Assembly (NCBI GenBank): GCA_036499085.1
Contig: DASYEK010000116.1
Coordinates: 273-64,272 of the forward strand
Length of the DNA stretch: 64,000 nucleotides
Direction of reading: 5' to 3'
Source: Herbaspirillum sp.
Lineage (GTDB): Bacteria > Pseudomonadota > Gammaproteobacteria > Burkholderiales > Burkholderiaceae_D
Of the stretch, positions 45,050-62,764 are shown piece after piece. Every line of letters starts with the position of its first letter. The stretch's first letter is position 1. The position numbers were made by a program, and so were the translations under genes. The notes under the pieces are model-generated. The model was not told the DNA's origin. It was given only the letters and a program-made list of their open reading frames with translations, and did no database searches.

Positions 45050-45124
45050 TGAATAGAACGACAAGCAACCTTGAGCCATCAGGGAGATTTACCTTCAACT
45101 CAATTTCACTAATGAGAAATCATC

Positions 45125-45571: not shown

Positions 45572-45666
45572 TCGACTTCATTCGAAGTCGCTTGCTACAC
45601 GGATTCAACAAGAAATGGCGGCATCTGCGCAACCTTTTCCATTTTGCGGGTTTACTTTCATTAGAC

Positions 45667-45718
45667 AGACTTTTAGACTCATTTTCAGGACTTGCCATCC
45701 TTTCATCTGCCTTAAACT
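45667..45718 (+). promoter_or_regulatory. Predicted AraC-activated promoter of PEP-mutase/dps/kef/flavoprotein run
   Basis: Plus strand AGAC-ttttagactcattttca-GGAC-N21-TAAACT. Confidence 0.65.
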
Positions 45719-45852
45719 ATAAATCGGTCGCGTAACCGACGTAGGCGGACGTCACCGCGTCCTTTCGTGAAACGGGCGGCGCCGGGTTCGCCAATGTGCC
45801 TCTTGCACGTTGATGCGAGTATTTCATCATCCACCGACACGACGAGGTTTCC

Positions 45853-46917
45853 ATGACCCGCACAATTTCTGAAAAACGCGCCATCTTCCGCGCCCTCCAT
45901 GAACAAGGTTGTTTCGTGCTGCCGAATCCCTGGGACGTGGGTAGCGCCCGCTATCTGCAAGGCCTGGGCTTCAAGGCCTTGGCGACAACAAGCGCGGGTT
46001 ATGCATGGTCGCAAGGCCTGCCGGACGGCGCCGCCACGCTGGAAATGGCATTGGCCCACTTGCGCGACATAGTGGCCGCAACCGATCTGCCGGTCAACGC
46101 CGATTTTGAACATGGCTTTGCCGCCGATCCCGAAGGGGTCGCGAAAAACGTCAAGCTCGCCATCGAGACCGGCATAGCGGGATTATCGATCGAGGACAGT
46201 ACCGGCGACGCCGCCAAACCTTTGTTCGCCATCGAAGAAGCAAGCGCCAGGATACGGGCTGCACGCAACGCAATCGACAGTGCTGGCGGCGACGTCCTGC
46301 TGATCGGCCGCGCGGAAAATTTCTTCATCGGAAAACCAGACCTGCAGGACACCATTGCCCGTTTGAAGGCTTATTCCGCGGCCGGCGCCGACTGCCTCTA
46401 TGCACCTGACATCGAGACGCGCGAAGACATTGCCGCAATAGTGGCCGCGGTTGCGCCGAAACCCTTCAACCTGTTGATCCGTTCGGACAACGGCCTGACC
46501 TTGCAGGACGCCGCCGATCTCGGCGTCCGCCGCATCAGCGTCGGCGCCGCGTTGGCACGCTCTGCGTGGGGCGGGTTCATGCGTGCGGCGCAAACCATTT
46601 CGCGAGGCCGTTTCGACGGTTTCGCCGATGCCGCGCCGGGCGCGCAACTGAATGCCTTCTTCCGTGTCTCAGGCGAAGAGCCATTGATGAAGCAGCCCGC
46701 GCACATTGTCGGCAAAGTCGAATATCGTGAAGGCGAAGGACCTTTGCTGGAGATCCCCTGCGGCGTTGTGGAAGTCGAAACCAATGCGGTCGATGCAATC
46801 TTCAGTTGGCCGGACGGCAAGTCCCATGGACTTGCGGCGATGCCGGTCGCCAATTTTTGCCGGTATGTCGCCGATGGAGCGATCACCGTCGCCGCGAAGC
46901 CGCCATTGCGTACTTAG
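45853..46917 (+). CDS. Isocitrate lyase/PEP mutase family protein with ~76-aa C-terminal extension
   Basis: LPNPWDVGSA, ALATTSAG, PVNADFE.G, GLSIEDS, AGADCLYAP; extension begins MKQPAHIVGKVEYREG. Confidence 0.85.
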   Translation: MTRTISEKRAIFRALHEQGCFVLPNPWDVGSARYLQGLGFKALATTSAGYAWSQGLPDGAATLEMALAHLRDIVAATDLPVNADFEHGFAADPEGVAKNVKLAIETGIAGLSIEDSTGDAAKPLFAIEEASARIRAARNAIDSAGGDVLLIGRAENFFIGKPDLQDTIARLKAYSAAGADCLYAPDIETREDIAAIVAAVAPKPFNLLIRSDNGLTLQDAADLGVRRISVGAALARSAWGGFMRAAQTISRGRFDGFADAAPGAQLNAFFRVSGEEPLMKQPAHIVGKVEYREGEGPLLEIPCGVVEVETNAVDAIFSWPDGKSHGLAAMPVANFCRYVADGAITVAAKPPLRT

Positions 46918-47022
46918 CGCGCGTATCGGCCTTGTTGCCGTCGGCATCGATTGGCGCAACGCAGAAAAGTTCGCTGGGCAACCATCGAACCTATTTCAAC
47001 CCCAACTACAAGGACAGCCATC

Positions 47023-47538
47023 GTGACCAAATCTCCTCCCAAAATTCGCCGCAAACTCCCCATGGCAACCCCCTCCGCCCTGGGCGCGGATGCGGTGCGA
47101 GACATCTCCGGCGGCCTTTCCATATTGCTGGCCGATTTTTTTGCGTTGTATCTGAAAACCAAGAATTTCCACTGGCACGTATCGGGTCCCCATTTCCGCG
47201 ACTATCATCTGATGCTGGACGAACAGGCTACCCAGATTTTTGCCGCCACCGATCCGATCGCCGAACGTACACGCAAGCTTGGCGGCACCACGCTTCGCTC
47301 CATTGGCCAGATTGCTCGCCTGCAACGCATATCGGACAACGATGCCGATTTTGTCGACGCGTCGGGCATGCTGGCGGAATTGCGCGAAGACAACCTTACG
47401 GTGGTGGCCAAGATGCGCGAAGTGCACGGATTGTGTGACGAATACAATGACGTTGCGACCGCAAGCCTGCTCGAAAACTGGATCGACGAAGCCGAGCAGC
47501 GCATCTGGTACCTGTTCGAGGCCGGCAAGAATGGTTGA
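47023..47538 (+). CDS. dps: Dps DNA-protecting ferritin
   Basis: LYLKTKNFHWHVSGPHFRDYHLMLDEQ...DPIAER ferroxidase motifs; GTG start after AAGGA. Confidence 0.93.
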   Translation: MTKSPPKIRRKLPMATPSALGADAVRDISGGLSILLADFFALYLKTKNFHWHVSGPHFRDYHLMLDEQATQIFAATDPIAERTRKLGGTTLRSIGQIARLQRISDNDADFVDASGMLAELREDNLTVVAKMREVHGLCDEYNDVATASLLENWIDEAEQRIWYLFEAGKNG

Positions 47539-47604
47539 TCGAGGCCATGCCGGGAAGACCTCCTCAACCAGGAAGCCGGCATAACGTCAATTTTCGATGA
47601 GGCC

Positions 47605-49314
47605 ATGACAGATACCGCAACGCTTGCCGTCCTGCTGCCAGTCATCTTGCTGCTGTTTCTCGCGGTGGCGACGGCTATCGCCAGCCGTATCGTCGGCTTG
47701 AGTCCCATCGTCGGCTACATCGCGCTCGGACTGGCGCTGCGGGCCGGAGGCGTCGGCTTCCTGTTCGAACAGTCGACCATTGCGCTGCTGGCGGAACTGG
47801 GCGTCATTTTCCTGCTGTTCGACATCGGGCTGCACTTTTCGCTCGCGCACGTGCGTCGGCAAGCGTCGGACATCTTTGCCTTCGGCCCGTTCCAGGTCGT
47901 GTTTGCCACCGTTGCGATCGGTCTCGCCGCGCTGGCTTTCGGCATGGACCTGCTGCCCGCCCTGCTGACAGGGGCGGTGCTGGCGTTGTCTTCGACCGCC
48001 GTGGTCGGACGCCTGATCGCCGAGCGCCACCAGCAGAACTGCCCGGTCGGACTGACCGCCACTTCCATCCTTGTATTCCAGGACGTGGCCGCGATCTTTC
48101 TCCTGATCGTCGCCGGCGCGCTGGATGGCGGCGGATCGGTCTGGATCGCCGCTTTGCAGGCACTGGGCAAAGCGGTGCTGGCCTTTGCCGTCACCGTGGC
48201 CATCGCCAGGCTGTTGATCGGACCGCTGCTGGCACTGGTAGCGCGCACCAGGAATGAAGAGGTGTTCACCGCGATGGCGCTGCTGATCGCGCTGGCGGCC
48301 GGCTGGGCGACCGGCCAGATCGGTCTTTCGCTGACCCTCGGTGCTTTCCTGGGCGGACTGGCGCTGGCGAAAACGCCTTATCGGGCCGTCATTGAATCTG
48401 AAATCAGGCCTTTCCGCGGATTGCTGCTCGGGTTTTTCTTCATTTCGATCGGCCTGTCGCTGGACGTGGCCGCCCTGGCAAGCTCGTGGCGGATCGTCAT
48501 CGGCCTCACCGTTCTGTTGCTTGCGCTCAAGATCGTCTCCAACATCCTGGCCAGCCGCGTCTTCCGCTGGTCGGTGCCGGGTTCGACGCAGCTCGGCTTC
48601 CTGCTGGCGCAGGGTTCGGAATTCGCATTCGTCATATTGAGCCTGTCCGCGGTGCGCGCCGTCATCGGGGAATCGCGCGCCTCGGTCATCATTGCCGTGG
48701 TGGCGCTGAGCATGGCGGTCACGCCCAATCTGGCCGACGCCGGCCGCAAGCTGGCCGGTCGCATGCGCATGCGCCGACAGCAGCAAAAGGCGATGATCGA
48801 AGAACTTACGCCGCAACTGGAAGCGGCGCCGGCGATCATCATCGGCATGGGGGAAATCGGCCGGACGGTGGCGGATGCCTTGATCAAATTCGAAATCGGC
48901 TATTACGCCATCGAACGCGATCCGCAACGTCTGCAAATGGCGATCGCCGATGGCTACAACGTCGTCTTCGGAGACGGTGCGGACATGCGGTTATGGGGGT
49001 CGATACAGCTTCATGCGCGCAAGCTGAGCGTTCTGACCGCTCCGGATTTCGAGGTGCTGAAGGAGACCGCTCCGATGGCGAAGATGCAATTCCCCAACCT
49101 GAAGCGCTTCGCGGTGGTAAGCGACGAAAGCGGACTTGAACGCTTCCATGGCATAGGCTTGCAGGCCATCGTGGATCGGAGCCTTCCGCGCGGAATCGAC
49201 GTCGCCATGGAAATCCTGACCGAATTGGAGATGCCGGCCGCGGCCATCGAAGAGTGGGTCAACGAGCAAACGCAATTTGCGGATTCGAACCCGCTGCTGA
49301 AGTCCGCCGCCTGA
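47605..49314 (+). CDS. CPA2 cation:proton antiporter with KTN domain (KefB/KefC-like)
   Basis: LAELGVIFLLFDIGL, ALSSTAVV, FQDVAA, LGAFLGGL, LAQGSEFAFV, KTN GMGEIG. Confidence 0.88.
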   Translation: MTDTATLAVLLPVILLLFLAVATAIASRIVGLSPIVGYIALGLALRAGGVGFLFEQSTIALLAELGVIFLLFDIGLHFSLAHVRRQASDIFAFGPFQVVFATVAIGLAALAFGMDLLPALLTGAVLALSSTAVVGRLIAERHQQNCPVGLTATSILVFQDVAAIFLLIVAGALDGGGSVWIAALQALGKAVLAFAVTVAIARLLIGPLLALVARTRNEEVFTAMALLIALAAGWATGQIGLSLTLGAFLGGLALAKTPYRAVIESEIRPFRGLLLGFFFISIGLSLDVAALASSWRIVIGLTVLLLALKIVSNILASRVFRWSVPGSTQLGFLLAQGSEFAFVILSLSAVRAVIGESRASVIIAVVALSMAVTPNLADAGRKLAGRMRMRRQQQKAMIEELTPQLEAAPAIIIGMGEIGRTVADALIKFEIGYYAIERDPQRLQMAIADGYNVVFGDGADMRLWGSIQLHARKLSVLTAPDFEVLKETAPMAKMQFPNLKRFAVVSDESGLERFHGIGLQAIVDRSLPRGIDVAMEILTELEMPAAAIEEWVNEQTQFADSNPLLKSAA

Positions 49315-49384
49315 CAGGCGGCCGGCATCCGTTCCCAGATGGAACGGAAACCAAATATCAATCACGTACCCAGGGGAAAAAAGC

Positions 49385-50806
49385 ATGACCGGTTTCAAAT
49401 CCACTTCCGATTCCACGCCCTCCGCATCGCCCCGCGTCTTCGACGCGATCCTGATCGGCACCGGCCAGGCCGCGCCCGCGCTTGCCAACCGCTTGACGGC
49501 TGCCGGCATGACGGTCGCGGTAATCGAACGCAACCTGGTGGGCGGCACCTGCGTCAACGCGGGCTGCACGCCGACCAAGGCGATGGTGGCCAGTGCCTAC
49601 GTGGCGCGCATGGCCGCCCGCGGCGCGGAATACGGCGTGATGCTGCCCGGGCCGGCGCGCATCGACATGGCCGCGATCAAGGCGCGCGCGGCCGCCATCG
49701 CCCAGGCCAGCCGCTCGGGCCTCGAAGACTGGATGAACAATATGCCCGGCTGCACGCTCATTCGCGGCCACGCGCGTTTCGAAAGCGCACGCCGAATCCG
49801 GGTCGGGGAACAATTGATCACGGCCGACAAGATATTCATCAATGTCGGCGGGCGCGCATCGATCCCCGGCATCGAGGGCCTGGATCGCATTCCGTACCTG
49901 ACCAATACCGGCATGCTGGCGCTCGACCAGGTCCCGCGCCATCTGATCGTGATCGGCGGCAGCTACATCGGGCTGGAATTTGCCCAGATGTTCCGCCGCT
50001 TCGGCGCGGAAGTGACGGTGCTCCAGAGAGGCCCGCGCCTGATTCCGCAGGAAGACGGCGAAGTCTCGGCGCAGATCAAGGCGATCCTGGAAAACGAAGG
50101 CGTCGAGATCCGGCTGAATGCGGAATGCATCCGGGTTCGCCCGCTTCCGGAAGGGGTCGCCGTCGGCGTCAACGGTTCGGCGGCCGAGCAAGAGATCGTC
50201 GGCAGCCACGTCCTGCTCGCCGCCGGCAGGCGGCCGAACACCGACGACCTGGGCCTGGACCAGGCCGGCGTGGCGACCGATGCGGCCGGCTACATCGCGG
50301 TCGACGGCCAGCTGCGCACCAGCGTCGAAGGAATCTGGGCGCTCGGCGACTGCAACGGCCGCGGCGCATTCACGCATACTTCCTACAACGATTTCGAGAT
50401 CGTTGCCGCGAACCTGCTCGACGGCGAGGCGCGCTCTGTTGCGGATCGGATTCCCGCCTATGCGCTATATATCGATCCGCCGCTGGGCCGGGTCGGGATG
50501 ACGGTGACGCAGGCGCAAAAGGCCGGCCGCACCGTCCGCGTCGGCATGCGGCCGATGACCCGCGTCGCGCGCGCCAAGGAAAAGGGCGAGGCGCAAGGGT
50601 CGATGCGGGTAGTGGTCGATGCAACCACGGATGAGATCCTGGGCGCCGCGATCCTGGGGCCTGGCGGCGACGAAGCCGTTCATATGGTGCTGGCCGCGAT
50701 GTCCGCCGGCGTGTCCTATACCGTACTGACGCGGACCGTGGCAATCCATCCTACTGTCTCGGAGTTGATACCGACCATCCTCGGCGAGCTTTCGGCGCCG
50801 CTGTGA
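49385..50806 (+). CDS. Flavoprotein disulfide reductase (RclA/MerA/LpdA superfamily; lacks MerA N-domain and C-terminal CC)
   Basis: GTGQAA, GGTCVNAGCTPTK redox CxxxxC, GGSYIGLE, GRRPNT, ALGDC, IHPTVSE. Confidence 0.88.
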   Translation: MTGFKSTSDSTPSASPRVFDAILIGTGQAAPALANRLTAAGMTVAVIERNLVGGTCVNAGCTPTKAMVASAYVARMAARGAEYGVMLPGPARIDMAAIKARAAAIAQASRSGLEDWMNNMPGCTLIRGHARFESARRIRVGEQLITADKIFINVGGRASIPGIEGLDRIPYLTNTGMLALDQVPRHLIVIGGSYIGLEFAQMFRRFGAEVTVLQRGPRLIPQEDGEVSAQIKAILENEGVEIRLNAECIRVRPLPEGVAVGVNGSAAEQEIVGSHVLLAAGRRPNTDDLGLDQAGVATDAAGYIAVDGQLRTSVEGIWALGDCNGRGAFTHTSYNDFEIVAANLLDGEARSVADRIPAYALYIDPPLGRVGMTVTQAQKAGRTVRVGMRPMTRVARAKEKGEAQGSMRVVVDATTDEILGAAILGPGGDEAVHMVLAAMSAGVSYTVLTRTVAIHPTVSELIPTILGELSAPL

Positions 50807-50813
50807 CCCTTCC

Positions 50814-51284
50814 CTATTTCACGATAGGTTGCACACCGTACTTTTGATGGTAGGTGCTCCTGATCTCATCCTGGCTTCGGGGAGGTTTGGCGAAGACATG
50901 GGCCGGCGACAGCAATGGAGTGATCGAAGTGGGTTCGATTTTGACAACTTGATCGACGGGATACTCCGGGCCGTTCGTCGCCTGGACCCAGTCCGCGATC
51001 ATCGAATACTCGTCGTTGCCTGGCGACAGTATCAACGCACGTCCCTTGAAGCGATAGCCGCGTCTCTCGAAGACGTCGACTACATTGATTTCGATGGCGG
51101 GATTGCGTTTCAGGTTGCGTATCGTGCCGGGCGATGCGATATCGGCGAAATAGAGAACGCCGTTCCTGACCGTCAGGGACGCCTTAGGGGAAAGGTTGGG
51201 CGTGCCGTCCTCATTGACTGTCGCGACGAACGACAGTATCGCCTGCTTGATGATCGCCTGCATGTCGGCATTGATTTCAATCAT
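50814..51284 (-). CDS. Pyridoxamine 5'-phosphate oxidase-like FMN-binding protein
   Basis: FVATVNEDGTPNLSPKASL, TIRNLKRNP, RRGYRFKG; AAGGAG RBS. Confidence 0.85.
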   Translation of the reverse strand: MIEINADMQAIIKQAILSFVATVNEDGTPNLSPKASLTVRNGVLYFADIASPGTIRNLKRNPAIEINVVDVFERRGYRFKGRALILSPGNDEYSMIADWVQATNGPEYPVDQVVKIEPTSITPLLSPAHVFAKPPRSQDEIRSTYHQKYGVQPIVK

Positions 51285-51378
51285 GGATATTCTCCTTAAT
51301 GTCATTTAATGAACTTGGGCAAACGCTTGTCATTGGCGTCGATGCGGTACGGCACAGGCGAGGCCGATTTCCTGCCAT

Positions 51379-52149
51379 TCAAGTTTCCGAAGCCAGGTAC
51401 CGGCTGGCCCAGGTCGATATCATCGCCGCGGCATAGTCCGCGTCGGCACGCCGCGTCAACAGGTGGTCGGCATCGTCCAGGGAAATGAAGCTCTTCGGAT
51501 GTTTCGCCACTGCAAAGATGCGCGCGGCATTCTCGATATCCACTGTCGCATCCAACGGCGCATGCAAGACCAGCAATGGAATTCGCAACCGCGCGATCCG
51601 CGACGCCAGGTCATGACGCGCCAGGTCCTCGATGAAACTCTTGCGCACCACGAACGGCCTGCCGGCCAGCGTTACCTCCGCTTGCCCCTGTGTCTCGATG
51701 GTTTGAAGGCTTTGCGGGCCAAACTGATGCAGGACATGGCTGACATCGAAAGGCGCGCCCAGCGTAGCCACGGCGCGAATGCCCGGCATCTCGCCTGCGG
51801 CCATCAAGACCGCCGCGCCCCCCAGGCTATGGCCGACGAGAATGGATGGCGGCTTGCCTTCCGCGGCCATCGCGTTGCCGGCCGCGACCAGATCGCTTAC
51901 GTCCGCGGCGAAAGTCGTGTCGGCGAAGCTTCCACCGCTATTGCCCAGTCCGGCAAAGTCGAAGCGCAACACGCCGATGCCGCGGGCAGCCAGGGCGCGC
52001 GCCAGGCGAGTGGACGCCAGGTTGTCCTTGCCGCATGTGAAGCAGTGGGCAAGTATGGCCCAACCCCGCGGCTGCGCATCCGGCAGTTCCAGTCGGCCGG
52101 CAAGCCGGTAGCCATGCGGTCCGTCAAATTCAAAGGTTTGTGCCGTCAT
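51379..52149 (-). CDS. Alpha/beta hydrolase (N-domain of the hydrolase-OsmC fusion type, without OsmC)
   Basis: AHCFTCGKD, LRFDFAGLGNS, GHSLGG nucleophile elbow, LHAPLD, LDDADHLL. Confidence 0.85.
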   Translation of the reverse strand: MTAQTFEFDGPHGYRLAGRLELPDAQPRGWAILAHCFTCGKDNLASTRLARALAARGIGVLRFDFAGLGNSGGSFADTTFAADVSDLVAAGNAMAAEGKPPSILVGHSLGGAAVLMAAGEMPGIRAVATLGAPFDVSHVLHQFGPQSLQTIETQGQAEVTLAGRPFVVRKSFIEDLARHDLASRIARLRIPLLVLHAPLDATVDIENAARIFAVAKHPKSFISLDDADHLLTRRADADYAAAMISTWASRYLASET

Positions 52150-52255
52150 AAGTCGCTTTCCCTGGTATCGGCGCACATATATCGATGCGTTCCGCGGGCG
52201 AATTCCGAATAGGTGATCCGGGCTCGCTCGCAGGACGATTTATCGGTTTGCCGGC

Positions 52256-52795
52256 TTAATCGACGGCTGGAAAATCGACGTCGGTGCCGTTGATACGGTT
52301 GAAGGTATTGGTGAACAGGCCAAGCGCCATGGTCAGCGAGATCTCGGCCAATTGGGTATCGGTATAGCCGGCCGCGCGGATGGCATCGAATTCGTCCTGG
52401 CTGATCGTGCCGCTGGTGGCGTGGAGGTGGGACACGAAACGCACCAGGGCATCGCGCTTGGCGTCGCCCGTGGGCTGCCCGGCGCGAATGGCGCGCAAGG
52501 CATCGGCGGACAGGCCGGTCATCTTGCCGACAAAGCTGTGGGCGGCCACGCAAACGTCGCAACCCGTCTTCGCGCTGAGCAACAGCTTGATGGTTTCGAG
52601 TTCCTGGTGGCTCAGGCCGCCAGAGTTCAATACGCGCTGGGTATTGAGCACCGCGGCCAGGGATGCCGGAACGAGATGACCCAATGCTGCATATGTGTTC
52701 GGGACGCGGCCGCCGGCTATCTTCTTGACCTGTGCGTAAATATCGGCGGTGGCGCCGGTGGCGGACTCGACGTCGGGGATGGCGATGCGGCTCAT
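52256..52795 (-). CDS. Carboxymuconolactone decarboxylase / AhpD-like peroxidase
   Basis: GRVPNTY, ETIKL, GCDVCVAAH CxxC-H motif, FTNTFN. Confidence 0.88.
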   Translation of the reverse strand: MSRIAIPDVESATGATADIYAQVKKIAGGRVPNTYAALGHLVPASLAAVLNTQRVLNSGGLSHQELETIKLLLSAKTGCDVCVAAHSFVGKMTGLSADALRAIRAGQPTGDAKRDALVRFVSHLHATSGTISQDEFDAIRAAGYTDTQLAEISLTMALGLFTNTFNRINGTDVDFPAVD

Positions 52796-52832
52796 GGTAT
52801 GCCTCTTTCATCAGGGGGGATTGGGAACCTAC

Positions 52833-52895
52833 ACTTTAGGCGTACTCGATATCGATTTCGAGACTGTATGAGATCAATAAAATGCTGAAAAGGAT
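52833..52895 (-). promoter_or_regulatory. Predicted promoter of the AhpD-like gene, with inverted AraC-type half sites
   Basis: Minus strand ATCCT-N16-ATCTC-N5-GTCTC-N21-TAAAGT. Confidence 0.4.
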
Positions 52896-53002
52896 CAAAA
52901 CAACCGGGCAATCCTTTACCCGAATGCGCGCGCTTCAATACGATGCCAGCCGTCTTGTCGGGATCGGGATTCAGGTGCCGGCCGTGTAGATGCGCGCCTC
53001 AT

Positions 53003-53986
53003 CTACGCTTCACACCGAATGCGAAGCGTATTGCCCGGTTTCAGCCCTCGGCGGCGCCATTGCCCCGGCGTCATCCCCATCTTGTCGGTGAATACGCGCC
53101 GGAATGCAGCCACGGATCGATACCCGACCGCATCGGTCACGGCCTCGGTAGTCATGCCCGGCTTCTGCAGCTCGCTGGCGGCCAGGCTCATTCGAATATC
53201 GGCCAGCATCTCGATGGCCGACCGGCCGAACTTGTCCTGAAATTGCCGCATGAATGTGGCTCGCGACATGCTGCACAATCGAGCCAGGTCAGGCAGGTTC
53301 CAAGGCCGCGCCGGCTCGGCGAGCATGGCTGAAATGGCCGGGGCCAGTCGTGGATGGCCTGCCAGCGCCAATAAGCCCGCCGGGGCCTGTTCGGACTCGC
53401 TCGCCGCGCGTAGCGTCAGTGTGAACAGCGCCGACGTGAGCGCGTTGAGGATCGCGAATCTGCCTGGTTTATCGCCGACCGATTCTGTGCACATCAGCCC
53501 CACCAGACCGGCCAGGTGATTCGAAGCAGGCCCGCTTCCTTCTTCACCCCGACCGCCCGTGGCGCGCACCGTCAAGGTCGTGGGAAGGTAATCGCGAATC
53601 AGTCGATCATGAGGCGGTCCGATAAAAAATCGCCCGCATAACATGTCCAGCCGTTCACCTTGTCCATCGTTTTCCTTGAGCGCCCATCCTGCAGAATTTT
53701 GCCGATTATAGGTATGCCCTGGCGCCTGACCGCTGCCATCGTTCAGGACGTGCGCCGACCCGTGAGGCAACAGCACGATATCTCCGCTCAGGAGTTCCGT
53801 GGCTGTGCCCGTCTCCGGATCCTCGATAACGGCCCGGCCCTTGAGGATGACGTGGTAGGGAATCTCGTGCGCGGCGGACTGATCCCAGGTCACGCGCCAT
53901 GGCGCACCGTAGATGCAGCGGACCTCCAACTGCCCGGTGATGGTGATCATTTGCAGGAGATGGCTCAACCAGTCGACTTGGGACAT
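53003..53986 (-). CDS. AraC regulator with cupin domain, RclR-like (AraC-3)
   Basis: MSQVDWLSHLL, EVRCIYGAPW and MLCGRF cysteines, LCSMSRATF, VGYRSVAAFRRVF. Confidence 0.9.
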   Translation of the reverse strand: MSQVDWLSHLLQMITITGQLEVRCIYGAPWRVTWDQSAAHEIPYHVILKGRAVIEDPETGTATELLSGDIVLLPHGSAHVLNDGSGQAPGHTYNRQNSAGWALKENDGQGERLDMLCGRFFIGPPHDRLIRDYLPTTLTVRATGGRGEEGSGPASNHLAGLVGLMCTESVGDKPGRFAILNALTSALFTLTLRAASESEQAPAGLLALAGHPRLAPAISAMLAEPARPWNLPDLARLCSMSRATFMRQFQDKFGRSAIEMLADIRMSLAASELQKPGMTTEAVTDAVGYRSVAAFRRVFTDKMGMTPGQWRRRGLKPGNTLRIRCEA

Positions 53987-54058
53987 AGGATTCCGTCAGA
54001 TCTCAGCACAAAAAAGAGCGGGAACCAATTGCGGCAATGCGCCGGCCGGCGGTCTCGG

Positions 54059-54910
54059 TCATTGCGATGCCCCTTTTGCGGCTGTTCGCATGGCCGATTC
54101 GCGTGCGCGCGCAATATCGTCGGCGATAGCGGCGCGGTGCGGATCTCCCTCGGGCAAGATGGCTGCCAAGCGTTCCCAGTAGGCGGACGCCTCGGCAAAA
54201 CGGCCTGCCTCGAACGCGGCCATGCCGGCCAGCTTCAGGCTGGTCGCCTCTTGTGGATCGCCAGCCAGGGCTTCGTCGGTCAGCGCCTTCAGCTTGGGCG
54301 TCCATTGCCGGCCACCCGCGAAATACAGGGCTTCCGCCCAGCGTCCCAGCAGTTGCGGCGGCCGGCCCGCCAAATTGGCGGCGCGCTCGAACGCCCGGGC
54401 CGCGTCGGCCATGCGTTCCTGCGCCGCGTAGGCGCGACCCAGCAATGACCAACCTTCGGCCGAGTCTGGTGTTGCCGCCAGTAATGCTTCCAGGCGCATG
54501 GCGACTTTCTCGACATTTTGCGCTTTGAGGCCGGCATCCTGTTGTTCCTGCATCAGTTGATCCGACGAACCCCAGTGCAGGTACAACACCAGCGCCAGCA
54601 GCGGCGTCGACAGCGCCGCGACCAGGGGAACAGTTCGCCCCAAGGGAGCGTCTGCCGGGTGCGGGGCGTCCTGCGCATCGTCCAGCAATACGCGGGCCGC
54701 CTCGTCCCGCCCGGCGTTGAACTGTTCCGCGTCAAGCGTGCCGGCGTCGCGCAGCGTTTCCAATTCGTTCAGACGTTCGCGGTAGACGTCGACGTTCAGG
54801 CTTGCACGGTCGGCGTTGAAACCCCTGCGAGGGCGGCGCAATTGGGGCAGCAGGATGAAAGCCGGAGCTGCTGCAAGAAGCAGCCCCGCGTACAACCAGA
54901 ACATGGTCAT
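54059..54910 (-). CDS. ccmI: Cytochrome c maturation protein CcmI/CycH (TPR)
   Basis: N-terminal TM, NVDVYRERLNEL, P..AEGWSLLGRAY TPR; ATGA overlap with ccmH. Confidence 0.85.
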   Translation of the reverse strand: MTMFWLYAGLLLAAAPAFILLPQLRRPRRGFNADRASLNVDVYRERLNELETLRDAGTLDAEQFNAGRDEAARVLLDDAQDAPHPADAPLGRTVPLVAALSTPLLALVLYLHWGSSDQLMQEQQDAGLKAQNVEKVAMRLEALLAATPDSAEGWSLLGRAYAAQERMADAARAFERAANLAGRPPQLLGRWAEALYFAGGRQWTPKLKALTDEALAGDPQEATSLKLAGMAAFEAGRFAEASAYWERLAAILPEGDPHRAAIADDIARARESAMRTAAKGASQ

Positions 54911-55395
54911 GTATCTGACTCCGTGGATGGGGCTGCGTCCTGCAGCAGACTGGCCAGGCGAAGCCGCTCGGCGTCGGACAATGGGCTTTCGGTTGCCGGA
55001 CGTGAGCGGCGCCGGTTCGCGACGATGGCCGCCAAGGCCGCGCCGCCGGCCAGCAACAGCAGGGCTGGGCCGAACCACAGCAGCATGGTGCGGGAGGATA
55101 GCGGCGGGTCGTAAAGGACGAAGTCGCCGTAGCGCGAGACCATGAAGTCGACGATCTGTTCGTCGCTTCGGCCTTCTACCACCATGCGCCGGACCTCGCC
55201 GCGTAAATCGTGGGCGATGGGCGAACTCGATTCCGCAATGTTCTGATTCTGGCACTTGGGACAGCGCAGTACCGAGGCCAGATCGTAATAGCGTTGACGC
55301 TGGGCGTCGTCAGGGAATTCGAGGACCTCGATGGCGGCATGGCTGGCGTTCAGCATGCCAAGGACAAGAACGAGCGCGGCGATCAGGCGTTTCAT
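54907..55395 (-). CDS. ccmH: Cytochrome c maturation protein CcmH
   Basis: LRCPKCQNQNIAES, FMVSRYGDFVLYDPP. Confidence 0.95.
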   Translation of the reverse strand: MKRLIAALVLVLGMLNASHAAIEVLEFPDDAQRQRYYDLASVLRCPKCQNQNIAESSSPIAHDLRGEVRRMVVEGRSDEQIVDFMVSRYGDFVLYDPPLSSRTMLLWFGPALLLLAGGAALAAIVANRRRSRPATESPLSDAERLRLASLLQDAAPSTESDT

Positions 55396-55931
55396 CGCGC
55401 GGCCTCGCGTAGCAGCTTGTCGTAGACCGGCGCCAGTTCTTCCCGCCAGACACGCTCGTCAATGATGCCGACGTACTTGTCGCGAATGACGCCTTTGCCA
55501 TCGATGAAGAAGGTCTCGGGGGCGCCGTACACGCCGAGGTCCAGGCCCAGTGTGCCGGCGGCGTCCTCGATGGTCAGCCGATATGGGTTGTGCAATGTGC
55601 GCAGCCAGTGCTGCGCGGCGTTGCGGTCGTCCTTGTAATCGACCCCGTAGATGACGACACCCTGGCCGGCCAGCCTGGTCAACACCGGGTGTTCCTCGCG
55701 GCAGGATGGGCACCATGTCGCCCAGACGTTGACCAGTGCAGGCCGGCCCTTCAAGTCGTCGCGAGTCAGCATGCGCGATGTTTCCTCGAGCGCCGGTAGC
55801 GCGAAGGCGGGAAACGGCTTGCCGATCAGCGCGGAGGGCAGCCGGGTGGGATCGAGGAACAGGCTGCGATATAGCACTACCGCGAGAAACAGGAACAATG
55901 CCGGCGGCAGCAGCAACAGCAATCGTTTCAT
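55392..55931 (-). CDS. ccmG: Thiol:disulfide interchange protein CcmG/DsbE
   Basis: LPSALIGKPFP, NVWATWCPSC, GVYGAPETF. Confidence 0.95.
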   Translation of the reverse strand: MKRLLLLLPPALFLFLAVVLYRSLFLDPTRLPSALIGKPFPAFALPALEETSRMLTRDDLKGRPALVNVWATWCPSCREEHPVLTRLAGQGVVIYGVDYKDDRNAAQHWLRTLHNPYRLTIEDAAGTLGLDLGVYGAPETFFIDGKGVIRDKYVGIIDERVWREELAPVYDKLLREAAR

Positions 55932-57898
55932 GGCCGCGCTCCGGCAATGCGCATGTCCGGAGCCGGCCGGGCCGCCCGGGGGCGATAGCGCCGATCGGAC
56001 GCCGCCAGCAAGCCGCCCAGGGCCATCATCAATGCGCCGAGCCAGATCCAGCGCACGAACGGTTTGATCTGCACCCGCACCGCCCAGGCGCCGTCGGCCA
56101 GCGGCTCTCCCAATGCCACGAACAGGTCGCGCGTGAAGCCGCCCTGAATGCCGGCCTCGGTGGTGGAAGTCTGCTGGACGCGATAGACGCGCTTTTCCGG
56201 GTGCAGCATGGCGACCTCGCGGCCATCGCGAATGACTCGTACACTGCCGCGATCGCTGGTGTAGTTAGGCCCCTGGCGCCGGGCTGTGCCTTCGAACACA
56301 AACCGATAGCTGCCCAGTTCCATGGCGGTGCCGGGCGCCATGCGCAGCTCCCGCTCCAGGCTGCCGGTGCTGGCCAGCACGACGCCCAAAGCGCACACGG
56401 CGAAGCCGAGGTGGCCCAGATGCATGCCCCAATAACTGCGCCCCAAGGCCGGCAGGCCCTTGCGCAGCCCTTGGTGGCGCGTCTTGTCGCGGATGTCGCG
56501 CAGGCCCGCCAGCACCATCCATGCGGCCAACAGGCAACCGGCCGCCACCGCCCAACGCGACCGCTCGTGCAGGGTAGCTGCGGCCAGCGCGACCAGCAGG
56601 CTGGTCGCCAGCACCGGTGCGAGCATGCGCGCCAGCCAGCGTGCCGGCGTGTCTTTCCAGCGCGTGAGCATGCCGACGGCAGCCGTCGTCATCAGCAGCG
56701 CCATCAGCGGCACGAACATGGCATTGAAATAAGGCGGGCCGACCGACAGCTTGGCGCCGGTCAGTGCATCGAGAATCAAGGGGTAGAGCGTGCCCAGCAG
56801 GATCATGGCCGCGGCCACCGACAACAGTAGATTGTTCACCAGCAGCAGCGTTTCGCGCGACCAGATCCCGAAGCCGGCCCGGCTCTTGACCACCGGCGCG
56901 CGCAGCGCGAATAGCGCAAGCGAGCCGCCGACCACTACCAGCAGGAACGCCAGCACAAACACGCCGCGCGTCGGATCGGTGGCGAAGGCGTGTACGGAGG
57001 TCAGCACGCCCGAGCGAACCAGGAAAGTGCCCAGCAAGCTGAGCGAGAACGCGGCGATGGCAAGCAGCACGGTCCAGCTCTTGAACACACCGCGTTTTTC
57101 GGTTGCGGCCAGGGAGTGGATCAACGCCGCCCCCACCAGCCAGGGCATGAACGATGCGTTTTCGACGGGATCCCAGAACCACCAACTGCCCCATCCCAGC
57201 TCGGAATAGGCCCACCACGACCCAAGGGCGATGCCCAGGCCGAGAAAGGCCCATGCCACGGTTGTCCAGGGGCGCGACCAGCGTGCCCAGGCAGCGTCGA
57301 GCTTGCCGTCCAGCAGGGCCGCGATGGCGAAGGCGAATGCCACCGAGAAGCCGACGTAGCCCATGTAAAGTATGGGCGGATGGACGATCAGGCCGATGTC
57401 CTGCAGCAAGGGATTGAGGTCGCGGCCATCGGCGGGGACGTTGGACAGCAAGCGGGCGAAAGGATTGGAGGTGCCGATCAGGAACAGCAGGAAACCCGTG
57501 CTGATCATGCCCATCACGGCGAGAACCCGGGCCAGCATCGCCTCCGGCAACTGGCGGGCGCCGAGCGAGACCGCGAATGTCCAGCCGGACAGTATCAACA
57601 CCCACAGCAGCAGCGAGCCTTCGTGCGAGCCCCAGACTGCGCTGAACTTGTAGTACCAGGGCAGCGCGCTGTTGGAGTTTTGCGCGACATAGGCGACCGA
57701 AAAATCATCCGTCAGGAAAGCATGGGTCAGGCACGCGAATGAAAACATCAGGAATGCAAATTGCCCCCAGGCGGCCGGCCTCGCCAACGCCATCCAGCGC
57801 CGGTCGCCGCGCCAGGCGCCGGCCAGCGGGATGCTCGCTTGCACCAGGGCGAGGCATAGCGCCAGGATCAGGGCCAGGAGTCCGAGTTCGGGGATCAT
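55928..57898 (-). CDS. ccmF: Heme lyase CcmF
   Basis: [53 protein letters not shown]. Confidence 0.97.
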
Positions 57899-58362
57899 CG
57901 AGCGGGCTCCTGTTTGACGGGCGGGAAATGGCCGGCCGCACCGGCTTGCTTCAGTGCATGCATGGCTTCGGGCGGCATGTAGTTTTCGTCGTGCTTGGCC
58001 AGGATTTCGTCGGCCTGCAGGCTGCCGTCGTCGTCGAGCCTGCCCGAGGCGACAATGCCCTGGCCCTCGCGAAACAGGTCCGGCAGGATGCCCTGGTAGC
58101 GCACGACGATGCTGCGGGCGCCGTCGGTGACGTTGAATCGCAGCATCAGCGAGTCTTGCGTGCGCTTGAGCGATCCGGACTCGACCATACCGCCGGCGCG
58201 GATGCGGGTGCCGTGCGGCGCTTCGCCGGCGGCGATCTGGCTTGGGGTGTAGAACAGGTTAATGTTTTCTTGCAGCGCGGCCAATGCCAGCGCCGAAGCA
58301 GCGCCGGCGCCGAATACCAGGGCCAGTATCCAGTACAGGCGCTTCTTGCGGGCGGGGGTCAT
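57895..58362 (-). CDS. ccmE: Heme chaperone CcmE
   Basis: [33 protein letters not shown] (heme-binding His/Tyr). Confidence 0.96.
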
Positions 58363-58538
58363 GGCGATGCCTCCCGGCGCCGGCGGCGTATCCGGTCGTT
58401 CAAGTAGCGGCGGCGCGCCAGCAGGGGTAACGCGATATTCAAGGCCATCACTACCAGGCACAAGCCATATGCGCTCCACACGTAGGCGCCATGGCCGCCC
58501 ATGGCGAGAAAATCGGCGAACGAGGCAAAGGCAATCAT
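58359..58538 (-). CDS. ccmD: Heme exporter protein CcmD
   Basis: [16 protein letters not shown] plus TM and basic tail; overlaps ccmC and ccmE by 4 nt. Confidence 0.88.
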
Positions 58539-59290
58539 GTCCGGTCCCTGAGCAGTCGAGCGATCTCGGCGTCGGCCCAGCGGCTGCCGGCCTCGCGGCG
58601 CAGCACTTCCAGGCGCATGCGCGCGAACAATACCGCCCCAAAGAAGCAATAGAAGCCCAGTACCGCCAGCAGCAACGGCAGCCACATCTGCGCCGGCATG
58701 GCGGGTTTGTGCGCGAGCGAAAAGCTGGCGGGCTGATGCAGGGTGTTCCACCATTCGACCGAATACTTGATGATGGGGATGTTGATGACGCCGATCACGG
58801 CCAGCAACGCGCAGCCGCGCGCCGCGCTGTCGCGGTTGATGATTGCCTGGCCCAATGCGATCACGCCCAGATACAGGAACAGCAGGATGAGCATGGAGGT
58901 CAGGCGCGCATCCCATACCCAATAGGCGCCCCAGGTGGGCTTGCCCCAGATCGAGCCGGAGGTCAGCGCGATGACCGTCATCCAGGCGCCGATCGGCGCG
59001 GCCTGCTTCAGGGCGATGTCGGCCAGCTTCATTTTCCAGATCAGGGAAATCATGCCGGCAGCAGCGAGCATGACGTAAATGGATTGCGCCAGCAGCGCCG
59101 CGGGCACGTGGATATAGATGATGCGGAAGCTGTCGCCCTGCTGGTAGTCCGGCGGCGCGAATGCCAGGCCCCATGCCAGGCCGACTGCAAGCAGCAGCGC
59201 GCTGGCGGCGGCCAGCCAGGGCAGGCACTTGCCGCTCATGTCGTGGAACCATTTGGGCGAACCCCATTTATGTAACCAGATCCAGTTCAT
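58535..59290 (-). CDS. ccmC: Heme exporter protein CcmC
   Basis: [26 protein letters not shown] domain, WWNTLHQ. Confidence 0.96.
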
Positions 59291-59336
59291 TCAAGTCGCT
59301 CGCAAGGGTTAGTCGGGCCTGCGCCGTGGATGCGTG

Positions 59337-60008
59337 TCATTCGGCGACGCTGATGGACAGCCCCGCGGCAACGGCAAACGGCGTCAGGGTGATTGCCAGC
59401 ACGGCGAGGCAGGCCAGCCACAGCAGATGCCCCGCGACCGGCAGATTCTGCAAGGCGGCCTGCAGGGCGCCGCTGCCCAGGATCAGCACCGGGATATACA
59501 GCGGCAGAACCAGCAAGGCCAGTAATAGGCCGCCGCGCCGCAAACCGACCGTGAGTGCCGCGCCGACGGCCCCCAGCAGGCTGAGCACCGGCGTGCCCAG
59601 CAGCAGCGACAGCAACAATGTCGGGAGGCAATGCGCCGGCAGGCCAAGCATCAGGGCCAGGAACGGGGCCAGCACAACCAGCCCAAGGCCGCTGCAAAGC
59701 CAGTATGCCGCTACCTTGGCCAATGCCAGCACCGTCAGCGAGTGCGACGAAAGCACCCATTGTTCCAGCGAGCCGTCCTCGAAATCGGTACGGAACAGGC
59801 CATCCAGCGAGAGCAACACGGCCAACAGCGCCGCGACCCATAGCAAGCCGGGGGCGACATTTTGCAGAATCAGCGATTGCGGTCCCAGCGCCAGCGGAAA
59901 CAGCGCGACGACTACGGAGAAGAACACCAAGGGATTGGCAAGGTCTGCGGGACGACGGCATAACAGGCGTAGCTCTTTATTGAACAGGGAGACAAAGGTC
60001 ATGCTCAC
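59337..60008 (-). CDS. ccmB: Heme exporter protein CcmB
   Basis: [32 protein letters not shown]; GTG start. Confidence 0.95.
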
Positions 60009-60694
60009 GGGGCGTACTGTCCCAGATCAAGGTCGGCGTAGGTTTGCGCTCGCCGGGTCAGCTCATGATGCGTGGTCAGCGCCACCGTGCCGCCGCGCTC
60101 GCAATGCATTGCCAGGTGCGATTCCAGTTGCGCTATGCCGGCAGCGTCCAGTGCCGTGAACGGCTCATCCAGCAACCACAGCGCGGGCGCATCGGGCAGG
60201 TACAGGCGTGCCAGCGCGATGCGGCGCTGCTGCCCGGCCGACAGCGCATGGCATGGCGTATCCTCGAAGCCGCGCAAGCCGACCGCGGCCAGGGCCTGCC
60301 CGATTTCGGCGGTTGCGCCGCGCCCGTGCAAGGCTCCCAGCCAGGCCAGGTTTTCCGTGGCGGTCAACAGCGCCTTGACGCCGGCGGCATGGCCTATCCA
60401 CAGCAGCCGGGAAGCCAGGGCGCCGCGCTGCGAGGCGAGATCCCGGCCGAACAAGCTGACATGGCCGGCGGCCGGGCGGGCCAGCCCGCACAGCAGGCGC
60501 AGCAGGCTGCTTTTGCCGCTGCCATTGGGGCCGCGGATGCGCAACATGGTGCCGGCATGCAGCCGAAAGCTCACGCTCGCGAATAGCTGGCGTTGGTCGC
60601 GTTCGCAGCCGAGAGCGACTGCGTCGAGCACGGGACCGGCGGCGTCCGCGCCGGCATCCTGGAAGCCGCGAAATCTGTGCATGGCGTACCGCAT
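60005..60694 (-). CDS. ccmA: Heme ABC exporter ATPase CcmA
   Basis: [36 protein letters not shown]; start codon uncertain. Confidence 0.95.
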
Positions 60695-60719
60695 CTACAG
60701 CCTGGCGTCCATGCCGCGC

Positions 60720-61298
60720 TTATCGCTTCAGGATCGGATAGCCGTCGGTGTAAATCCAGTCCGATGCTTGCGCCGGCACGTGGCAGGACTGACAGTCCTT
60801 CTTGAAGTCCGTGGACGTTGTCTTTTTGGAGTCGGTCGCGTCGAACCAGGACCAACCCCAACCGTCGCCCCAAAGCTTGTTCTTTGGAAAGCGGCCGACG
60901 TCATCCTTCACCATGACAAACCAGCCGGCGAGAGTGTCGGCACTGCTTACGGTTCCGGTGGTCATGGGTTTGGTAGCGGCCTTGAACACTTCCTTCACCA
61001 GAACGGTGCCATCGGGAAAGTGCCCGGTCTTGCGGTATGCGGCGATCGTTCCGGGAGATGCGTAGACAACGTGCATCTGTTTTGAGCCCGGGCCTTTGTC
61101 ATCTGCCACGGCCCAGGTTCCCAGCATCTGATAAGTGGTCCGATAGTCCGCGGGAACGCGCATATTTCCCTGGTTGTCGACCGCGGCCGCGGTCTTTGGG
61201 CCGAACTGCGAGCGTGTGTTCGTCTGCCCGAAGGCAGCGACGTGGACCATCATGGATAATCCTACCAGGGCGACGCCCAAGGCACTTATGATTCTCAT
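60720..61298 (-). CDS. Cytochrome P460 family protein B (divergent)
   Basis: Signal peptide, P.DYR..Y, HVVY, GHFPDGTVLVKE, VMVKD, GWGW, C-terminal CQSCH, DWIY. Confidence 0.85.
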   Translation of the reverse strand: MRIISALGVALVGLSMMVHVAAFGQTNTRSQFGPKTAAAVDNQGNMRVPADYRTTYQMLGTWAVADDKGPGSKQMHVVYASPGTIAAYRKTGHFPDGTVLVKEVFKAATKPMTTGTVSSADTLAGWFVMVKDDVGRFPKNKLWGDGWGWSWFDATDSKKTTSTDFKKDCQSCHVPAQASDWIYTDGYPILKR

Positions 61299-61345
61299 GG
61301 CACTGTTTCCTTGTGTTGGTGAATCGGCGGCATTCATCGACGATT

Positions 61346-61942
61346 TCAGTCGTCCAGCAATGGATAGAACTGGGTCCAGACATCGTCTTTCTTGGCGTTC
61401 GCCCGGTGGCAGAACGCGCATTCCTCATTGGGTTTCACCTTCGCGGTCGCTGCCTTCGGTTCGAAGTGGTTGAAGTTGTAGTAGCCCCATCCCCCGGTGG
61501 CGACGTAACGCTTGGAATCCTTGACGGTCACGTCGGCGCCGTTAAACTTCCCGGGAAAGTAGCCGCGCCCGGATGCCTCGGTGCGCGATCCGTCCGGGTT
61601 CTGGGCCGGAAGCAGCAGTTGCAATTCCTTGAAGAAGATCGTTCCCTCCGGGAATTCGCCGGTCTTCTTGTAAATCGCATACGAGCCCGGCTCGATGTAG
61701 ACGTTGTGGAATTCAGGGAAATTGGCCTTGCCGCCGTTGAGCGCGTTAGGCGTGAGCGGTGAGCCGACGTATACCCACTCATGAAAATTCTTCGGCAGGA
61801 TCAGGTCGCCTGATTTCGTATATTCGGGGAGATAGCGCTTTCTCGCTTGCGTGCCCCCGTCGCTGGACGACGACTGGGCGAATGTGGTTGTTATGACAAG
61901 CGCGCTGAGACCCGCAGCAGCAATCAGTAAGGGAATACGCAT
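61346..61942 (-). CDS. Cytochrome P460 family protein A (Nitrosomonas CytL-like)
   Basis: GDLILPKNFHEWVYVG..TPNALNGGKA.F, KKTGEFPEGTIFFKE, SGRGYF, VKDSKR, CAFCH, VWTQFYPLL; GGAGAAAAGG RBS. Confidence 0.9.
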   Translation of the reverse strand: MRIPLLIAAAGLSALVITTTFAQSSSSDGGTQARKRYLPEYTKSGDLILPKNFHEWVYVGSPLTPNALNGGKANFPEFHNVYIEPGSYAIYKKTGEFPEGTIFFKELQLLLPAQNPDGSRTEASGRGYFPGKFNGADVTVKDSKRYVATGGWGYYNFNHFEPKAATAKVKPNEECAFCHRANAKKDDVWTQFYPLLDD

Positions 61943-61979
61943 ACCTTTTCTCCTTCTCTCCACGAATAGTTGAGCGCTC

Positions 61980-62031
61980 ATCCTATCTTTGTCGACGGTT
62001 CCAATGGTCTCGAAATTGTTCCAATTCGTCC
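61980..62031 (-). promoter_or_regulatory. Predicted AraC-activated promoter of the P460-ccm operon
   Basis: Minus strand GGAC-gaattggaacaatttcg-AGAC-N21-TAGGAT. Confidence 0.65.
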
Positions 62032-62293
62032 AAATATTCGAATTGGATTCATAACCGACCGCATATGCGAATCTTCGTTGTCCGGGGCATCAAACAGATG
62101 CATCCGGATCTGCGGGCTTTAGGCCAAGGAGTATCGTAGGACCGCGTCGCGGCGGTCGCGCGGCGGCAATGGAAGGCGGATCAATTGGCAAGGGTCCATT
62201 CGGCGAGCAAAGACGCACGCAATCTTCCCAATCATGCTGTGCGCTGATCCTGAGGAATGCCGCGCTGACGGCGGCCTTGTATTTGGAACCGGC

Positions 62294-62764
62294 TTATCTT
62301 CTTGCCGAACAATCGAGGAATTGCGCCTGCTCCGGCAGGCGCGCCAGGGTGGCGCCGTCCGGTTCGTCATCGAAGTATTTATGCAGCGCGCGGTTGAACA
62401 GCTGCCGGTCCGGGGTCGCATTGCCCGATGCGGCGGAGAACAGCGTCATCGAGGAGCGGAATTTCATTTCGTCGGGATCGCCGAATATCGCATAGGCCGA
62501 CTTGCCAGGGATGGCGTCGACCAATGCCGTGCACTTGCGCAGGCGTTCGCCCAGCAGGGGGTGATCCAGGTAAGCCTCGGCTTCCGCCAGGGAGGCGATG
62601 GCGAAGCGGCGCGCCATTTCGCTGCTGCCGAGTCCGGTCAATTGCGGAAAGATGAACCACATCCAGTGCGTCTGCTTGCGGCCGGCGCGCAGTTCCGCGC
62701 AAACCTGTTCGAACACCGGCGCCTGTGCATCGACGAAACGCTGCAATTGGTAGGGGTCGTTCAC
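62294..62764 (-). CDS. DUF1810 family protein
   Basis: LQRFVDAQ, ELRAGRKQTHWMWFIFPQ, YLDHPLLGERL, KFRSSMTLF. Confidence 0.92.
   Translation of the reverse strand: MNDPYQLQRFVDAQAPVFEQVCAELRAGRKQTHWMWFIFPQLTGLGSSEMARRFAIASLAEAEAYLDHPLLGERLRKCTALVDAIPGKSAYAIFGDPDEMKFRSSMTLFSAASGNATPDRQLFNRALHKYFDDEPDGATLARLPEQAQFLDCSARR

Follow-up and report, generated by a model that had tools for sequence, protein, structure and literature searches.

The window analysed here, a 64,000-nucleotide stretch of Herbaspirillum sp. DNA (GenBank assembly GCA_036499085.1, contig DASYEK010000116.1, positions 273 to 64,272 of the forward strand), carries two adjacent genes for proteins of the cytochrome P460 family, P460A and P460B, followed on the same strand by a complete set of System I cytochrome c maturation genes, ccmABCDEFGHI. 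P460A (61346..61942, minus strand) encodes a protein of 198 amino acids and P460B (60720..61298, minus strand) one of 192. Both match the family profile PF16694 over its full length (model positions 1-125): P460A scores 95.9 bits (E 3e-27) and P460B 102.5 bits (E 2.8e-29), against a cut-off of 27 bits. The profile search thus bears out the initial annotation, which had assigned both proteins to the P460 family. With start codons set at the ATG proximal to the ribosome-binding site (RBS), the coordinates of the two genes are exactly those of that annotation. Each protein begins with a hydrophobic, signal-peptide-like segment, and both are predicted to be periplasmic.

P460A has the cross-link lysine Lys105 (in GTIFFKEL), Asp137 at the position of the distal carboxylate and the CXXCH motif C175-AF-C-H179 (CAFCH); the corresponding residues of P460B are Lys102 (in GTVLVKEV), Phe127 and C169-QS-C-H173 (CQSCH). 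In both proteins the cross-link lysine aligns with Lys106 of NsP460. The Lys, Asp and CXXCH of P460A are invariant in 120 close homologues except for one His to Arg substitution, and the Lys, Phe and CXXCH of P460B are invariant across 120 homologues. P460A is ∼50% identical to the P460 structures 6amg (Nitrosomonas sp. AL212) and 2je2 (N. europaea), with E 1e-44, and P460B matches P460 structures in the PDB at E 1e-12, being the more distant of the two.

The nine ccm genes are complete and intact, and all lie on the minus strand, as do the P460 genes. The operon begins with ccmA (60005..60694), encoding the haem-exporter ATPase (NF010061, 270 bits, cut-off 195), and ccmB (59337..60008; PF03379, E 3.1e-69), which overlaps ccmA by 4 nt. 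Next come ccmC (58535..59290; TIGR01191, 259.6 bits, cut-off 186), with a WWD-type motif, ccmD (58359..58538; 59 amino acids), and ccmE (57895..58362; NF009729, 222 bits, cut-off 171), encoding the haem chaperone with His124 in HDENY. They are followed by ccmF for the haem lyase (55928..57898; PF16327, E 1.6e-121), ccmG/dsbE for a thioredoxin-like protein (55392..55931; TIGR00385, 191.7 bits, cut-off 123), ccmH (54907..55395; PF03918, E 1.9e-50) and ccmI (54059..54910; TIGR03142, 94.4 bits, cut-off 29.3; PF23914), the last with an N-terminal membrane domain and a TPR domain. Eight of the genes were identified by family match, and ccmD by its position, size and the composition of its translation; its slot and length equal those of the PF04995 CcmD in three loci of other bacteria (L025, L026 and L028). 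The System I motifs are intact in CcmE (HDENY), CcmH (LRCPKC) and CcmG (WCPSC), and CcmC and CcmF carry the WWD motifs WGAYWVWD / WGSWWFWD.

The genes are as closely packed on one strand as first annotated. Gaps of 47 nt separate P460A from P460B, 25 nt P460B from ccmA and 46 nt ccmB from ccmC, and the remaining junctions are 4-nt overlaps. None of the intergenic gaps from P460A to ccmI has a terminator-like site by a simple consensus scan. A single transcript of ∼8 kb is plausible, and from the gene arrangement we infer that the P460 pair is co-transcribed with ccm.

A putative promoter or operator element of 47 nt lies upstream of P460A (61997..62043, minus strand). It was found by aligning the regions upstream of P460A from 14 loci. 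The consensus reads ...TTTGGACGAATCAGAAC-N4-TTCGAGACC..., with a conserved -10-like CTACGATGA and then the RBS after it; all three features are common to 10 loci of different beta- and gammaproteobacterial genera. In a whole-genome scan, a position weight matrix of the element scores 65.6 bits at 61997-62043 and 9.4 bits at the next best site. Because the element is conserved across genera and has a single strong site in this genome, the P460 promoter appears to travel with the pair and to be unique here. The initial annotation had placed P460A under an "msrA-type promoter motif", which we could not reproduce: blastn-short and 12-mer comparisons of twelve upstream regions of the surrounding genomic island found nothing in common with the region upstream of P460A. 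Two candidates for a common island motif were also rejected. The sequence CGAATTGGAM has 18 matches against 11 expected, a number reached in 4 of 100 shuffles, and is not clearly enriched; the palindrome CCAATTCG-N10-CGAATTGG is unique.

An accessory System I on an acquired island

The genome contains one CcmF, that of the operon described above, and the operon was initially taken for the housekeeping maturation pathway. This was rejected on the basis of the System II genes of the genome and of a survey of the genus. The assembly is a 4.0-Mb metagenome-assembled genome (MAG) of 144 contigs, 93.6% complete with an estimated contamination of 3.2%. Its contig C5 encodes ResB followed by a CcsA-type protein, a complete System II. 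ResB is present in 44 of 44 same-genus genomes, CcmF (CcmF_C) and P460 were found in none of the other 43, and a DNA search of the genus gave no match to positions 54-62 kb of the window. The housekeeping role thus belongs to System II, with the System I operon as an accessory. The earlier proposal that the P460 genes have maturation genes of their "own" stands in this sense: the ccm set is dedicated or accessory, not housekeeping.

The operon and the pair form the right end of a genomic island of 24.6 kb (37701..62314), which is absent between the conserved flanks of the closest same-genus genome, G050. Collinearity with the window extends to position 37700 (C4:329614 in G050) and resumes at 62315 (C4:330187), at 81-91% identity, and the empty site of G050 has 570 bp between the flanks compared with 24.6 kb here. 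The island was acquired, and the unit sits inside it as had been proposed.

The origin of the sequence from a MAG with 3.2% contamination and 144 contigs, together with the G+C content of the ccm stretch (64.5%, compared with 61.3% for the genome), could point to a mis-binned or chimeric assembly, or the ccm genes could after all be housekeeping. We consider either very improbable. Both flanks of the island are on the same contig and syntenic with the same-genus genome G050, the left part of the window encodes Herbaspirillum-type proteins (named homologues of a housekeeping protein there assign the genus to Herbaspirillum), the contig end carries the genome's own family of repetitive extragenic palindromic (REP) sequences, and System II occurs here and throughout the genus.

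In its nine genes, canonical order, motifs and translational coupling the operon resembles CcmABCDEFGH(I) of the E. coli and Pseudomonas type. It differs from the usual System I in being an additional, horizontally acquired copy where System II (or, in alphaproteobacteria, System I) already exists, in having CcmFs that fall into long-stemmed clades of their own, and in being headed by, or lying beside, two client genes. A precedent for extra CcmF/H-type genes beside the cytochrome they serve is NrfEFG of E. coli, which acts on the CXXCK haem of NrfA. Here, unlike NrfEFG, the whole ccmA-I pathway and not the lyase alone is duplicated, and the clients have ordinary CXXCH motifs. The matches to the NrfE model TIGR03145 (CcmF, 743 bits, cut-off 927) and to the NrfF model TIGR03147 (134 bits, cut-off 159) remain below their cut-offs.

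Recurrence of the pair and of its ccm linkage

Close homologues of P460A and P460B (70-88% identity) number in the thousands. They are spread over alpha-, beta- and gammaproteobacteria, with hosts in Stutzerimonas, Pseudomonas, Rhizobium, Bradyrhizobium, Bordetella, Paraburkholderia, Cupriavidus, Herminiimonas, Massilia and Sphingomonas, and occur also in acidobacterial and verrucomicrobial MAGs. We took a census of the neighbourhoods of 61 species loci with full context, counting a locus as ccm-linked if two or more ccm genes were within 10 kb. The sequences mark P460A and P460B as a conserved and anciently diverged pair, because the two share only 28% identity, yet a B-type gene directly follows the A-type gene in 52 of the 61 loci. 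Linkage to ccm was found in 26 of the 61, a count that overstates the number of independent cases, many of the linked loci being from related Bradyrhizobium. The survey of P460-P460-ccm neighbourhoods proposed with the initial annotation thus shows that the arrangement recurs widely, and this comparison strengthens the case for dedicated maturation. Since ccm clusters occur once or twice per genome of 4-9 Mb, the probability of their adjacency to the pair by chance would be well under 1%.

The linked loci have several layouts. The collinear order P460A-P460B-(ADH, msrB, msrA)-ccmABCDEFGHI is found in Bordetella sp. H567, Janthinobacterium sp. Marseille, Herminiimonas aquatilis, Allopusillimonas and Methylophilus sp. 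QUAN, and also in two Burkholderiales MAGs with a cytochrome b561 gene between A and B. Cupriavidus sp. H19C3 has the permuted order ccm-AraC-P460A. In Bradyrhizobium, Afipia and alphaproteobacterial MAGs the layout is another one: ccmC-G-E-F-H with divergent ccmBA, ∼3 kb from the pair. In a sample of 401 genomes of the window's own family, P460 genes of the A/B type (hits of 96-104 bits) occur in seven, and in all seven a CcmF lies ∼4-7 kb off on the same contig. The A and B genes are adjacent in five of these; in G353 the second gene is on another contig, and G259 has one hit only.

Genes for such a b561-family membrane protein lie at L052 10950-11486, L055 10775-11305 and L028 8518-9060; their place is between P460A and P460B in the two Burkholderiales MAGs and just upstream of the pair in Marseille, Bordetella and Afipia. 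This placement suggests that electrons may reach the pair by a quinol-linked route. The window's genome has no island-type copy of the b561 gene.

Extra ccm copies occur in hosts with either maturation system. ResB is absent from Bradyrhizobium sp. STM 3557 and Afipia sp. 1NLS2, each of which has a CcmF at its native locus and another next to the P460 pair. Two CcmFs alongside ResB occur in Cupriavidus H19C3 and Herminiimonas aquatilis, and Methylophilus QUAN has ResB and the P460-linked CcmF only. In the first two species the second ccm cluster is compact (L104 1-7105 and L087 13179-20493) and the native System I genes are dispersed; we know of no description of such a compact second cluster beside a P460 pair in alphaproteobacteria.

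In a maximum-likelihood tree of 31 CcmFs, the nine beta-type P460-linked CcmFs, including that of the window, form one clade with 100/100 support and a stem of 0.76 among Burkholderiales CcmFs. The eight alpha-type linked CcmFs form a clade of their own, with 100/100 support and a stem of 0.53, whose sister group is the native CcmFs of Bradyrhizobium and Afipia. Because these are two long-stemmed clades with 100/100 support, each within its own class, the tree indicates that two Ccm lineages were recruited independently to the same pair and then diverged markedly; by this phylogeny the P460-ccm linkage arose at least twice. This double recruitment is our strongest reason for taking the association as functional and not as accidental hitch-hiking. 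Host incompatibility alone is insufficient to account for the linkage, because alphaproteobacterial hosts with a native System I carry duplicates.

Distal pockets, gene context and the role of the unit

The two proteins share with the Nitrosomonas P460 cytochromes (2je2, 6amg) the PF16694 fold, the C-terminal CXXCH, the cross-link lysine and the predicted periplasmic location. They differ from them in forming a conserved A and B pair, in having Asp (A) or Phe (B) in place of the Glu whose exact position the active enzyme requires, and in their hosts, which are heterotrophs and not ammonia or methane oxidisers and which carry the pair beside oxidant-repair genes and an extra Ccm. A distal carboxylate is required if hydroxylamine (NH2OH) is to be oxidised, namely Glu96 in NeP460 and Asp102 in McP460; the Methylococcus P460 uses its Asp on a shifted strand. 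The variants Glu96Asp of NeP460 and Ala131Asp of NsP460 are inactive (PMC11928373). At the distal-carboxylate position the A-type proteins invariably have Asp, on a Nitrosomonas-type scaffold, and the B-type proteins invariably have Phe. Because Asp in the Nitrosomonas scaffold is inactive and B has Phe, classical NH2OH oxidation appears doubtful for A and, going by the known mechanism, would be excluded for B.

These residues bear directly on the idea that the pair is a nitrogen-cycle enzyme, a hydroxylamine oxidase or NO-handling protein for heterotrophic nitrification or NH2OH detoxification, whose oxidant-stress neighbours are incidental. The close relationship of P460A to characterised Nitrosomonas P460s, with the cross-link lysine kept, and the nitroreductase gene that comes after the pair in Stutzerimonas agree with this idea. 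The distal Asp and Phe speak against it, and so do the neighbourhoods listed, in which no amo, hao, nor or nir genes occur and the recurrent genes are msrA/B, AhpD-like and RclR/RclA/RclC-like. We therefore regard a nitrogen-cycle role as improbable.

In its fold and in the hydrophobic distal-pocket residue of P460B the pair also resembles cytochrome c'-beta (Methylococcus capsulatus McCP-beta, 6hih). A role in binding NO or CO as ligands has been proposed for the c'-beta family. Its members have Phe or Met in place of the cross-link lysine, whereas A and B retain the lysine invariantly, and the match of the c'-beta structure to A and B is weak (E about 1e-4 to 1e-5).

The genes that recur beside the pair are msrA/B, an AhpD-like gene, a quinone-oxidoreductase-like ADH, cytochrome b561, a DUF417 protein and Cupin_6-AraC regulators. 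This context points to periplasmic defence against oxidants or nitrogen oxidants, and it is from such neighbours that the detoxification role put forward in the initial annotation (NH2OH/NO, chloramine or HOCl) would follow. We put at roughly 60% the probability that the unit is a horizontally mobile, self-contained periplasmic haem-protein module, composed of the P460 pair and a complete extra System I and likely serving oxidant defence. In such a module the conserved dedicated promoter would drive the P460 pair together with the complete extra Ccm set, and the Ccm proteins, with a presumed specificity for the pair, would supply and attach c-haem for both P460 proteins. Production of the pair would then be independent of the maturation pathway of the host, which in Herbaspirillum is System II. 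P460A and P460B would probably act together, possibly as a heterodimer. The module came here as the right-hand end of an island rich in oxidant-repair and thiol/redox genes, and its role would most likely be periplasmic defence against hypohalous acid, chloramine, NO or peroxide as presumed substrates, and would be neither energy-yielding nor classical hydroxylamine oxidation. All observations are best accommodated by a capacity to make the pair rapidly that is co-regulated and independent of the host.

Several observations weigh against this reading, in addition to the inflated independence of the linkage counts. The pair occurs without ccm within 10 kb in Stutzerimonas, Rhizobium, Dongia and many Bradyrhizobium loci. 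No CcmF was detected in Paraburkholderia rhizosphaerae, which has the A-type gene only, or in a Chthoniobacterales MAG with two pairs, where in either case the genome may be incomplete; because of these two genomes, the pair can probably be matured without a linked Ccm. Another P460 subtype (∼125-136 bits to PF16694) is found in the family genomes G146, G404, G420, G379 and G312, which have System II only and no CcmF, and System II presumably matures it there. The island further encodes a class I cytochrome c (38765-39382), another possible Ccm client.

The reactive-chlorine theme within this reading is weak as well, because the matches to its components are far below the cut-offs of NCBIfam. 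The best match of all five Cupin_6-AraC proteins compared is RclR, at 75-135 bits against a cut-off of 400; a flavoprotein of the island has RclA among its matches, at 336 bits against 740; and the DUF417 protein present in relatives has RclC as its best match, at 69 bits against 275. The units resemble the RclR-RclABC system of E. coli in their Cupin_6-AraC regulators, their pyridine-nucleotide-disulfide flavoprotein and, in relatives, the DUF417 membrane protein, but they have no RclB, and the Rcl system as described includes neither P460 nor Ccm (PMC7464077). Because all matches are far below the equivalog cut-offs, the units are judged by sequence not to be members of that system.

The second cytochrome of the island also belongs to a serious rival, in which the island Ccm is a stress-inducible or low-haem-proof replacement for the maturation of all c-type cytochromes and the P460 pair is a co-regulated passenger. 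Such a general back-up would agree with a Ccm set that is complete and canonical and whose motifs have nothing specific to P460, with the cbb3-like oxidase with c-haem subunits that adjoins the unit in Bordetella, and with the many genomes that have the pair without linked ccm, two of them apparently without any CcmF. It does not account for the fact that the P460 pair, and no other cytochrome, recurs beside the extra ccm clusters in both independent lineages, or that every genome of the family sample with A/B-type P460 genes is ccm-linked. Serious as it is, we hold the back-up explanation to be unlikely.

Less likely still is that the module exists for reasons of compatibility, A/B-type P460 proteins not being maturable by System II and so having to bring System I into System II hosts. 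All seven genomes with A/B-type P460 in the Oxalobacteraceae-type family sample are ccm-adjacent, ResB is present in the beta-type hosts tested, and in Stutzerimonas, a member of a group whose native pathway is System I, the pair lacks ccm nearby. Against this, Bradyrhizobium and Afipia, with a native System I and no ResB, still have a second, P460-linked ccm cluster, and the A-type genes of P. rhizosphaerae and of the Chthoniobacterales MAG occur with no detectable CcmF. A general rule that System II cannot mature P460 is weakened further by the other P460 subtypes in genomes that lack CcmF.

A bolder version of the preferred reading, in which the pair is a heterodimeric periplasmic enzyme of new activity, is also unlikely on present evidence. 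Such an enzyme might, for example, reduce or dismutate chloramine or hypohalous acid with quinol electrons delivered via b561, and would be served by a specialised Ccm that co-evolved with it twice. This would make the unit the first complete client-dedicated System I.

To our knowledge, P460 cytochromes have been studied almost only in nitrifiers and methanotrophs. The initial annotation had suggested that the unit was uncharacterised, and a full-text literature search turned up no paper on a P460 pair or on P460 linked with ccm, msr, hypochlorite, chloramine or oxidant stress. In a 2025 review of the P460 family we found nothing on gene context and no mention of heterotrophs. The unit is a new combination of known families: a client-linked, horizontally mobile and complete extra System I. 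It defines a large and highly conserved A/B subfamily, with gene transfer over at least three proteobacterial classes and apparently also Acidobacteriota and Verrucomicrobiota, which has repeatedly been joined to a complete extra haem-attachment system and to genes for methionine-sulfoxide and peroxide repair. It offers a testable handle on the role of P460 outside nitrification and on why cells keep two cytochrome c maturation systems, and there are culturable carriers in Janthinobacterium sp. Marseille, Herminiimonas, Cupriavidus, Stutzerimonas stutzeri and Bradyrhizobium. Should the Ccm copy turn out to be client-specific, System I could no longer be viewed as purely a general housekeeping pathway.

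Regulators and the remainder of the island

The likely regulator of the unit, as we infer from gene context, is a Cupin_6-AraC protein. Such a gene is divergent from the pair in Stutzerimonas, where nitroreductase and AhpD-like genes come after the pair, and in Allopusillimonas; in Cupriavidus it precedes P460A. The island has three Cupin_6-AraC genes, one of which, AraC-3 (53003..53986, minus strand; PF12852 and PF12833), lies 72 nt downstream of ccmI. Its best NCBIfam match is RclR (135 bits, cut-off 400), and homologues with 57-76% identity adjoin P460A in Cupriavidus and on a Bradyrhizobium plasmid. AraC-3 may therefore be the regulator of the unit here. It has an 80%-identical paralogue elsewhere in the same genome (G000:C28:25338-26273) and an 81%-identical DNA match in G050, and may predate the island or have been duplicated.

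The other genes of the island encode a quinone-oxidoreductase-like ADH, a ferritin-like protein, MsrB, a thioredoxin-like protein, MsrA, EgtD, a PEP-mutase-family protein, Dps, a KefC-like protein, the RclA-like flavoprotein, a PNPOx-like protein, a hydrolase and an AhpD-like protein, in addition to the class I cytochrome c. Signatures of mobility were looked for: the window has no tRNA, the island borders have no repeat pair, and the island genes scanned include no integrase. By its base composition the island is a mosaic of different origins, with a G+C content of 53-55% over window positions 40001-46000 (msrA-AraC1-egtD-AraC2). Outside the island, the G+C content dips to 47-49% at 6001-8000 and 10001-12000, in a genome of 61%, and further foreign DNA may be present at 6-12 kb of the window.

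At the empty site of G050 (L119 3700-4180; G050:C4:329700-330180) there is a small lipoprotein-like gene with a TonB_C-like C-terminus, which the island replaces. Just inside the right border of the island, at window positions 62092-62211, lies an intergenic element of ∼117 nt. It has one copy in this genome, but many other genomes of the genus have several (72-78% identity), which often sit at contig ends. We considered the element as a tRNA or integration site and rejected this: it contains no tRNA and has no Rfam match, and no transposase lies beside two copies in two complete relatives. The last stretch of the window, from 63885 to 64000 and on to the contig end, holds a REP-like repeat 40-90 nt long. 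Dozens of copies, often in clusters and inverted, are scattered over many contigs of this genome, and the repeat occurs also in other genomes of the genus. This repeat probably caused the contig break.

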